From a virus (taxonomy: Duplodnaviria > Heunggongvirae > Uroviricota > Caudoviricetes), in IMG/VR virus record IMGVR_UViG_2660238147_000004, positions 1-49,037 of that record: a stretch of 49,037 nucleotides of DNA. One strand, 5' to 3'. A program made the position numbers and the translations under genes. Shown one piece after another: positions 9,682-10,257 of this stretch. The notes beneath the pieces are model-generated. The model saw only the letters and a program-made list of their open reading frames with translations, had not been told where the DNA came from and searched no databases. The stretch's first letter is position 1, and each line of letters starts with the position of its first letter.

Positions 9682-9969
9682 TTAACGGATCAACATCCAG
9701 ATCAGCAGACACGCCACCACCGGCACAGCAAAATCCATCAGGCTTGCCACATCCCACGCGCGTGGATCAAAACCGCCCCACCACGGCATGTTAATCCGCT
9801 TGCCATGCCCGAACATTTCAATCCAGCGATATTCTGCCTGGGTGTGTTCACGCGCAATGAAGAACGTACAACCGGCTATCGCCCCGTAAGCCCAGTTTCC
9901 GGTAAAAAGACCAGCCAGCCCCTGTACCGCCACAGCACAAATTGCATGAAGTATCGGCGTGATATCCAT
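9682..9969 (-). CDS. small membrane protein (95 aa), last gene before the att junction
   Basis: Two hydrophobic segments; AAGGGGA RBS; distal end of the late operon. Confidence 0.5.
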   Translation of the reverse strand: MDITPILHAICAVAVQGLAGLFTGNWAYGAIAGCTFFIAREHTQAEYRWIEMFGHGKRINMPWWGGFDPRAWDVASLMDFAVPVVACLLIWMLIR

Positions 9970-9978
9970 CTGCTCCCC

Positions 9979-10257
9979 TTAAAACCACTCCCTGAGCGGG
10001 CGCTCTGGTGTAACCACCCACTCACGGAACACGGATTCATCAAAGCCATCGTCAAGAAGACGAATATTAACAAAGTACCCTTCGTCTCGCGTGTATTCAG
10101 GCTCCCCGTCAGCAGAAACACCTGACTCACTGAACGTAAAACCAATCTCATCAACCAGAACGGCATTCTGCAGCTCTTCGTCCTCTTCCCAGTTAAGTTT
10201 CCTGAGAAATGCCCTGAAATCTGCTTTATCACTGAAACGCAACGTGAAATCTCTCAC
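9979..10257 (-). CDS. small acidic protein (92 aa) immediately downstream of the tail fibre gene
   Basis: Start abuts the tail fibre stop (translational coupling); Asp/Glu-rich; no family recognised. Confidence 0.5.
   Translation of the reverse strand: MRDFTLRFSDKADFRAFLRKLNWEEDEELQNAVLVDEIGFTFSESGVSADGEPEYTRDEGYFVNIRLLDDGFDESVFREWVVTPERPLREWF

Follow-up and report, generated by a model that had tools for sequence, protein, structure and literature searches.

Two small genes behind the side tail fibre of an Escherichia coli prophage: a candidate fibre accessory protein and a separate predicted membrane protein

The virus record IMGVR_UViG_2660238147_000004 of IMG/VR, a stretch of 49,037 nucleotides assigned to the Caudoviricetes (hereafter the window, always at its full length), contains a prophage whose side tail fibre gene is followed by two small genes. 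These encode an acidic protein of 92 amino acids (aa) and a membrane protein of 95 aa. The two genes do not appear to form one module and would have different jobs, since their distributions, conservation and base composition all differ. The favoured reading, to which a probability of about 0.6 can be given, is that the 92-aa protein is an accessory of the fibre's distal module, serving as a chaperone or subunit, while the 95-aa protein is an independent membrane protein that acts on the host envelope or on phage entry. Both proteins belong to families that are catalogued but uncharacterised. The newness therefore lies in the families and not in the locus, as thousands of E. coli genomes have members of them and the two window genes are unremarkable copies.

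The window is E. coli chromosome, and E. coli O18:H1 CFSAN067215 was used as the comparison strain for RefSeq genes. Positions 8900-10400 are 100% identical to this strain, and the three open reading frames (ORFs) of the fibre, the 92-aa protein and the 95-aa protein, all on the minus strand, coincide with RefSeq coding sequences (Table 1). Both small proteins also have full-length matches in PHROG, with hundreds of homologues each, supporting the view of an earlier note on this DNA that two real genes lie behind the fibre. The 92-aa protein matches phrog_1361 (E 2.5e-39; residues 1-92 on profile positions 1-92 of 92), with phrog_18574 as a second match, and the 95-aa protein matches phrog_1443 (E 5.5e-56; residues 1-95 on profile positions 1-95 of 97). 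Both genes are also overlapped by ORFs in alternative frames or on the opposite strand (9876-10232 and 9805-10125 among them); these are not annotated in RefSeq and were taken as spurious.

Direct reading of the sequence shows that the TGA stop codon of the fibre gene and the GTG start codon of the 92-aa gene share the four letters GTGA, with GGGGAGG upstream of that start. This overlap would couple translation of the 92-aa gene to that of the fibre, in agreement with the earlier note, which had described an acidic protein coupled to the fibre. The acidity is likewise clear, with an isoelectric point of 4.25 and 23 aspartate and glutamate residues against 11 lysines and arginines. Abutting or overlapping of the fibre stop and the small-gene start is a general property of these loci, found in 80/80 IMG/VR loci and in 6/6 of the virulent-phage loci examined. 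The 95-aa gene has a ribosome-binding site in the short gap behind the 92-aa gene. A promoter scan of the minus strand from 9300 to 10700 found no sigma-70-like promoter, and thus none for the 95-aa gene itself. Base composition changes along the locus, with GC content at third codon positions of 0.38 in the distal module of the fibre, 0.48 in the 92-aa gene, 0.58 in the 95-aa gene and 0.69 in J.

The fibre itself consists of a lambdoid N-terminal anchor, a shaft rich in alanine and serine, and a distal module of about 435 aa. Residues 1-131 correspond to the anchor of lambdoid Stf proteins (PF08400, E 4e-68 in Pfam), and the N-terminus also matches the tail fibre chain of PDB 9e7m (E 2.6e-48). 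Residues 205-686 match phrog_1419 (E 0), and the distal module is of the phrog_1419/5939 type. Within it, residues 329-530 match the NCBIfam model NF048003, GTA_spike_fiber (E 4e-19), a likeness to the head-spike fibre of the Rhodobacter gene transfer agent; a weak match was also seen between the fibre centre and PDB 6tb9, Rcc01080. Among lambdoid alleles, the segment 331-530 is exchanged and is 45-50% identical, while the flanks at 251-330 and 531-687 are 84-100% identical. The C-terminal end of the homologous protein of a T5-like phage forms a protruding galectin-like domain (PMC11990801). The Peptidase_S74 intramolecular chaperone is absent from the 687-aa fibre, for which Pfam shows just phage_tail_N and weak, unrelated matches.

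The distal module is horizontally mobile and is contained in 218 phage records. It is 42-60% identical to that of the window over about 435 aa in phages KarlJaspers, KookSpook, IrisVonRoten, KarlBarth and pangalan, and just 36% identical in SelmaRatti. By comparison, rV5 gp41 is described in the rV5 proteomics paper as having an endosialidase-like C-terminal domain, not the fibre module of the window.

In every locus fetched, the module and a 92-aa homologue were adjacent, and no module was seen there without the 92-aa gene. The module ends exactly at the start of the 92-aa gene in 80/80 lambdoid loci of an IMG/VR synteny sample of at least 80, and the same adjacency is present in the six virulent phages named above, which belong to four groups. 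In SelmaRatti, for instance, the module is followed by an 88-aa homologue that matches phrog_1361 (hhalign probability 97.9%). A tblastn search found 92-aa homologues in 187 phage records, including T1-like (Drexlerviridae), T5-like, Dhillonvirus, JenP1/JenP2 and rV5-like phages, and almost all of the 60 matches listed adjoin a fibre gene or overlap with one. The total also agrees with the 218 records that contain the module. The matches in JenP1 and JenP2, which we take to be Seuratvirus, point to the same fibre pairing. An empirical rule derived in this analysis, namely that a PHROG 1361 gene stands directly after a module of the phrog_1419/5939 type, also describes the gene of the window.

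A more distant version of this arrangement is seen in Comamonas prophages, where the gene of a phrog_5939 tail protein runs into an overlapping gene for a small phrog_18574 protein. Comparison of these small proteins with the 92-aa family by hhalign was not significant, and the link between them consists of common phrog_18574 matches alone. In Comamonas testosteroni JL40 (locus L120, 4432-4998), the fibre-coupled small protein is 188 aa long. Over its N-terminal ~94 aa it shares 53% identity with the 95-aa version of C. kerstersii, which belongs to phrog_18574, and its extra C-terminal ~95 aa match phrog_6034 and phrog_14311, both families without an assigned function, indicating that a fused accessory form exists.

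Searches for a known relative of the 92-aa protein returned no match in Pfam, NCBIfam or PADLOC, and none in PDB by sequence search. Neither small protein matches a tail-fibre-assembly family in Pfam or NCBIfam at E <= 0.1, and a search of the window with three Tfa-type queries gave no match at E < 0.1, in line with the earlier note's statement that no Tfa-like gene is present. The 92-aa protein is predicted to adopt a compact alpha/beta fold. This predicted fold shows no similarity to solved tail-fibre assembly proteins, and a fold search of BFVD returned uncharacterised proteins of uncultured phages and nothing else. The homology and structure check that the earlier note had proposed thus assigned the protein to no known tail-fibre assembly family. 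In the literature, neither small gene is characterised in the BASEL, DT57C and rV5 proteomics papers or in the preprint on lambda Stf engineering, and no paper was found under the PHROG, FIG or accession names of either family.

The 95-aa protein is hydrophobic, with a grand average of hydropathy (GRAVY) of 0.56 and hydropathy peaks at its first and third helices. The earlier note had described a membrane protein with two helices; the hydrophobic character holds, but the AlphaFold2 model gives three helices (4-23, 26-53 and 74-94) at a predicted local distance difference test score (pLDDT) of 93. It is therefore best described as a predicted three-helix membrane protein, its membrane location and topology being deduced from the model. 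No match was obtained in Pfam, NCBIfam or PADLOC, nor in PDB by sequence search. The family comprises more than 565 homologues, all unnamed and without Pfam matches, in 433 clusters at 50% identity. All are stand-alone proteins of 63-146 aa, and a search for domain fusions among the 433 clusters found none. The window protein carries the conserved motif REHTQAEYRWI...GKR..MPWWGGFD.R.WD. Residues H8, R40, E41, Q44, A45, E46, R58, W72 and P83 are conserved over 64 diverse members, and closer homologues additionally share D2, Y47, R48, D68 and D79. The protein is 80-100% identical irrespective of the fibre allele that precedes it. A lipoprotein reading of the sequence IAGC (residues 31-34) was also considered and rejected, since it lies inside predicted helix 2, Cys34 is not conserved and a positively charged N-region is absent.

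The genomic contexts of the 95-aa gene are more varied than those of the 92-aa gene. In temperate phages with each of the three tail types, it is repeatedly found directly behind receptor-binding genes. For example, it follows a P22-like tailspike and precedes int, with a terminator-like hairpin upstream, and in Leclercia and Aeromonas prophages its start lies at the stop codon of HP1-like fibre genes. In Halomonas phage phiHAP-1 it follows the Tfa gene, between the Tfa and sheath genes; in Pantoea it follows a DUF4376 protein, and in Comamonas it follows gpJ and a 72-aa gene. As to whether functional phages do without the two small genes, a point raised by the earlier note, the 92-aa gene was never missing beside the module, whereas the 95-aa gene was not found in the virulent-phage loci examined that carry the fibre and 92-aa cassette. 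As these are functional phages with the same module, the fibre does not need the 95-aa gene.

A decayed, unannotated remnant of the 95-aa gene was found in the virulent K1 phage vB_Eco_ZCEC08 (locus L096, 3465-3620), directly after the endo-N-acetylneuraminidase (endosialidase) gene, as a 51-aa ORF that retains NIPWWGGFDWRAWDLPSLLD. This suggests that spike and membrane gene were acquired jointly from a temperate phage and that the membrane gene decayed later. Homologues are also chromosomal, in Aeromonas and Alphaproteobacteria, and the existence of such members suggests a cellular origin of the family. In Aeromonas, the homologue adjoins pirin in A. rivipollensis (L006) and in at least three of four other loci (L104, L112, L113 and L114, the last scanned without its upstream ORF). 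Gene calls, available for L006 alone, place no phage genes around it. In two genomes the homologue adjoins ligA, and in one PNPase. The pirin-adjacent copies point to a cellular role for the family. A different context was seen in a Comamonas testosteroni prophage (L005, 6300-8033), where the homologue lies directly upstream of an apparent lysis cassette, read from ORF translations alone, with two small membrane proteins, an endolysin-like protein of 183 aa and an Rz-like protein of 171 aa. This is the sole context seen that links the family to lysis.

How these two proteins act can be considered in turn. Retention of the 92-aa gene in strictly virulent phages rules out a part in lysogenic conversion, and its place after the same module in every locus examined argues for a fibre accessory, most likely a chaperone or a fibre-bound subunit. 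It would be produced from the fibre mRNA by coupled translation, and would then either aid folding and assembly of the distal part of the fibre or stay bound to it as a small subunit. On sequence and predicted fold it is unrelated to lambda Tfa, to T4 gp38 and gp57A and to the S74 intramolecular chaperone. The suggestion of the earlier note that it could be a non-canonical fibre helper thus gains support from the coupling, the lack of a match to any known assembly family and the constant company of the module, and the protein is probably a new kind of helper. It is no determinant of specificity, given its 91-100% identity across alleles that differ in the central insert of the fibre. Strict covariation between the 92-aa protein and the fibre C-terminus was considered and rejected, being confounded by linkage and broken by T5-like and Dhillonvirus cases. 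The earlier note had alternatively regarded both genes as one lysogenic-conversion or superinfection-exclusion module in the cargo slot next to att. The two genes are indeed adjacent and co-oriented at the prophage end, and fibre, small protein and membrane protein occur together in every lambdoid locus long enough for all three to be seen, and also in Comamonas prophages. However, the 92-aa gene is found in virulent phages that lack the 95-aa gene, the latter is found with no 92-aa gene beside it, both behind unrelated receptor-binding proteins and in chromosomes, and neither protein matches any defence model of PADLOC-DB 2.0 at E <= 1. Moreover, the actual cargo lies downstream of both genes: in related lambdoids the 95-aa gene is followed by sitABCD, by a methyltransferase with a lactone hydrolase and OmpT, or by dinI, and the 95-aa gene therefore belongs to the backbone rather than to the cargo slot. 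A joint module of this kind is thus very improbable. Several observations do sit uneasily with the accessory role. The fibre ends of IrisVonRoten and KarlBarth are 64-75% identical to that of the window but their small proteins just 43-45%, while lambdoid alleles with fibre ends only 39-49% identical have small proteins that are 61-63% identical; correlations between fibre end and 92-aa protein could also reflect linkage alone. In addition, a second, distal fibre gene follows the 92-aa gene in virulent phages, which an adaptor would fit as well as a chaperone. Such a structural adaptor or tip subunit would sit in the virion on the C-terminal, lectin-like end of the fibre and, in virulent phages, anchor the second fibre. 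In T5-like, T1-like and Dhillonvirus phages the 92-aa gene lies exactly between the proximal fibre gene and a further fibre gene, which encodes a T-shaped fibre of 574-582 aa (T5-like), a 225-aa S74 protein (KarlJaspers) or a Phage_tail_C_2 protein (KarlBarth). The BASEL annotation of the homologue is 'tail fiber protein', the published model has the distal fibre attached to the proximal fibre (PMC11990801), and divergence of the 92-aa protein tracks phage lineage more than the fibre C-terminus. Yet lambdoids have no second fibre gene and still conserve the 92-aa gene highly, and the function therefore concerns the first fibre itself. Virion proteomics or density for the 92-aa protein was not found, and PMC11990801 is silent on the small protein. 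An adaptor is less probable than the favoured reading.

For the 95-aa protein, a role in the envelope or in exclusion seems most likely. Its gene stands last, behind the receptor-binding genes of temperate phages, and is apparently expressed in the window from the late tail transcript; the protein would act on the host envelope or on phage entry, by exclusion or surface modification, via a conserved host target. A function at the envelope or in entry that benefits lysogens fits the position after receptor-binding genes, the restriction to temperate phages with decay in a virulent one, the indifference to receptor specificity and the existence of chromosomal members. Other observations speak against such a role: the gene has no promoter of its own in the scanned region, its coupling to HP1-like fibre genes implies late and not lysogenic expression, it matches no known defence or exclusion family in PADLOC-DB 2.0, its conservation irrespective of receptor specificity argues against receptor-specific masking, and one homologue adjoins the apparent Comamonas lysis cassette. 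Some of these would suit a lytic-cycle membrane protein, for instance one that is holin-like, sets lysis timing or keeps progeny or fibres off the dying cell. Three helices in about 95 aa are seen in class I holins, as in the AlphaFold2 model here, the window gene apparently depends on late transcription, translational coupling to late fibre genes occurs in HP1-like prophages, a lysis cassette seems to follow the Comamonas homologue, and one family member has a faint Phage_holin_8 match (E 0.042). This is nonetheless quite unlikely, as the window's own lysis region is far off (lysozyme at 37907-38440, Rz at 37443-37925), the protein ends one residue past helix 3 without a charged C-terminal tail, its polar motif is conserved far beyond what is usual for holins, chromosomal copies exist outside prophages and the gene is absent or decayed in virulent phages. 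A small membrane protein that serves a conserved lipid-linked or envelope pathway as enzyme or regulator, captured from a host and altering the lysogen surface, would account for the polar residues that are invariant or nearly so (all those listed above except A45, with five more in closer homologues), for the copies next to pirin in several Aeromonas species and for the frequent position of the phage copies after glycan-targeting fibres or spikes. The same lack of a lysogenic promoter and the coupling to late genes bear on this proposal, which seems unlikely, if less so than a holin. The broader envelope or entry role therefore remains the preferred description of the 95-aa protein.

Table 1. 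Coordinates of the fibre locus and of the prophage edge in the window.
Feature	Positions	Strand	Evidence or remark
Stf-type side tail fibre, 687 aa	10254-12317	-	RefSeq: 'prophage tail fiber N-terminal domain-containing protein'
Distal fibre module, aa 251-687 (~435 aa)	10254-11567	-	common to virulent T1-like, T5-like, Dhillonvirus and rV5-like phages
Hypervariable central insert, aa 331-530, presumed receptor-binding domain	10728-11327	-	allele comparison and NF048003
Overlap GTGA of fibre TGA stop and 92-aa GTG start	10254-10257	-	sequence read directly
92-aa acidic protein, PHROG 1361; candidate fibre chaperone or fibre-bound subunit	9979-10257	-	WP_001204583.1, RefSeq hypothetical protein
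Ribosome-binding site GGGGAG of 95-aa gene	9973-9978	-	inside the 9-nt gap from 92-aa TAA to 95-aa ATG
95-aa membrane protein (predicted), PHROG 1443	9682-9969	-	WP_016245365.1, RefSeq hypothetical protein
Hairpin just past the 95-aa stop	9633-9664	.	8-bp stem (CCGCAGTA / TACTGCGG), 16-nt loop; read from sequence
Last phage-derived stretch before the island junction	9574-9637	.	blastn; matching stretch beyond the sitABCD cargo in Lambda_2E9
lom	12469-13068		upstream of the fibre, with J also upstream

Similarity to phage genomes stops at about 9573, 109 bp beyond the stop codon of the 95-aa gene, and it is plausible that the att junction lies at this prophage edge. The hairpin just past the 95-aa gene has a T-rich run on its plus-strand side, followed by CTTTTTACTTTTTAT on the plus strand (to 9679). 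It was not reported by the terminator scan, as this reports loops of 8 nt or less. As a candidate terminator it would act on transcription from the island side and not on the tail operon, and it could also be part of the att region. Beyond the edge, positions 1-9400 form a GC-poor island (GC 0.37, against 0.52 in the prophage part) that carries RepL, two H-NS-like genes, DUF6387, DUF4755/4756 and ComEA-like genes. A fragment resembling the 3' end of transfer-messenger RNA (tmRNA) lies on the minus strand at 9282-9299 (E 4e-4), a hint that integration at a tRNA- or tmRNA-type site took place in tandem.

Other features of the window were noted further from the fibre locus. The tail-tip region at 13136-22458 is partly duplicated, with J1 at 13136-16828 (1230 aa) and J2 at 17878-21750 (1290 aa). 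The two share 84% identity overall, rising to nearly 100% over residues ~716-1190, and similarity of J2 is lost after about residue 1194, where it enters an apparent partial K-like gene. A second tail-assembly I gene, at 17172-17852, shares 62% identity with the I gene at 21811-22458. In the closest genome (L001) just one J is present, and no contiguous high-identity copy of the junction near 18175 was found among 5,426 complete E. coli genomes. The duplication is a rare rearrangement or else an artefact of assembly. Three tRNA genes (Arg-tct, Arg-tcg and Met-cat) are located in the prophage at 39516-39765, about 0.7 kb from the lysis region, a common arrangement in lambdoid and Stx-type phages.

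Re-targeting of phages and of delivery particles derived from them works mainly through receptor-binding fibres, and the module considered here has spread naturally over lambdoid, T1-like, T5-like, Dhillonvirus and rV5-like phages. If it needs its 92-aa partner, transplanting the module would require the 92-aa gene too. The 95-aa family, in turn, is a conserved and very widespread prophage gene at the usual site of exclusion and conversion genes, and its target could reveal a general route by which the envelope of a lysogen is changed or entry is blocked. A stronger claim would hold that the 92-aa protein founds a new class of tail-fibre partner (chaperone or branching adaptor) in at least five lineages and in Betaproteobacteria, and that the 95-aa protein is a host-derived, universally conserved small membrane factor, placed behind receptor-binding genes so as to alter a conserved step of the envelope or of entry by a new, widespread exclusion or conversion mechanism. 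That both parts hold together is doubtful.

The known systems close to the 92-aa protein include lambda Tfa, P2 gpG and Mu gpU (Pfam Caudo_TAP, often with DUF4376-type partners), which are likewise small, encoded directly downstream of the fibre and co-inherited with its distal part. Like these, it is presumably needed for fibre maturation, but it differs from the Tfa and Caudo_TAP proteins in having no sequence match and no fold similarity to them. The T5-type Peptidase_S74 chaperone of fibres and endosialidases is also alike in helping a distal fibre domain to fold where no Tfa gene exists. In those systems, however, the helper is a cleaved C-terminal domain, whereas the candidate helper of the window is a separate polypeptide beside a fibre that has no S74 domain. 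A gene of KarlJaspers, bas06_0035 (L009, 4270-4947), is annotated as 'putative lateral tail fiber chaperone' and carries a Peptidase_S74 domain (E 1.6e-4); because of this domain, it resembles a short distal fibre with its own intramolecular chaperone more than a free chaperone. Also close are the branched fibres of T5-like phages, such as IrisVonRoten gp22-gp24, in which gp22 has the same distal module (60.5% identity) and gp23 is the 92-aa homologue (PMC11990801). Unlike these branched lateral fibres, the lambdoid version is without a distal second fibre. DT57C, with LtfA and LtfB, has no small gene between ltfA and ltfB (gp108 and gp107) (PMC4728585, PMC10713586).

The 95-aa gene stands where exclusion and conversion genes stand, directly after the fibre, spike or J and mainly in temperate phages. 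Such genes near receptor-binding genes include cor of phi80 and N15, llp of T5, Z/fun of P2, gtrABC and oac of P22-like phages and HK97 gp15. The Z/fun slot of P2 matches the position of the 95-aa gene in phiHAP-1, between the Tfa and sheath genes. The protein nevertheless has no sequence relationship to any of these and, unlike the Cor- and Llp-type exclusion lipoproteins, no conserved lipobox cysteine, and it differs from exclusion and conversion genes in its receptor-independent conservation, the lack of its own promoter here and its chromosomal members. With class I holins of the lambda S type it shares a length of about 95-105 aa and three hydrophobic helices, from which it is set apart by its place outside the lysis cassette of the prophage (37.4-38.4 kb), the missing charged tail and a conserved polar motif.

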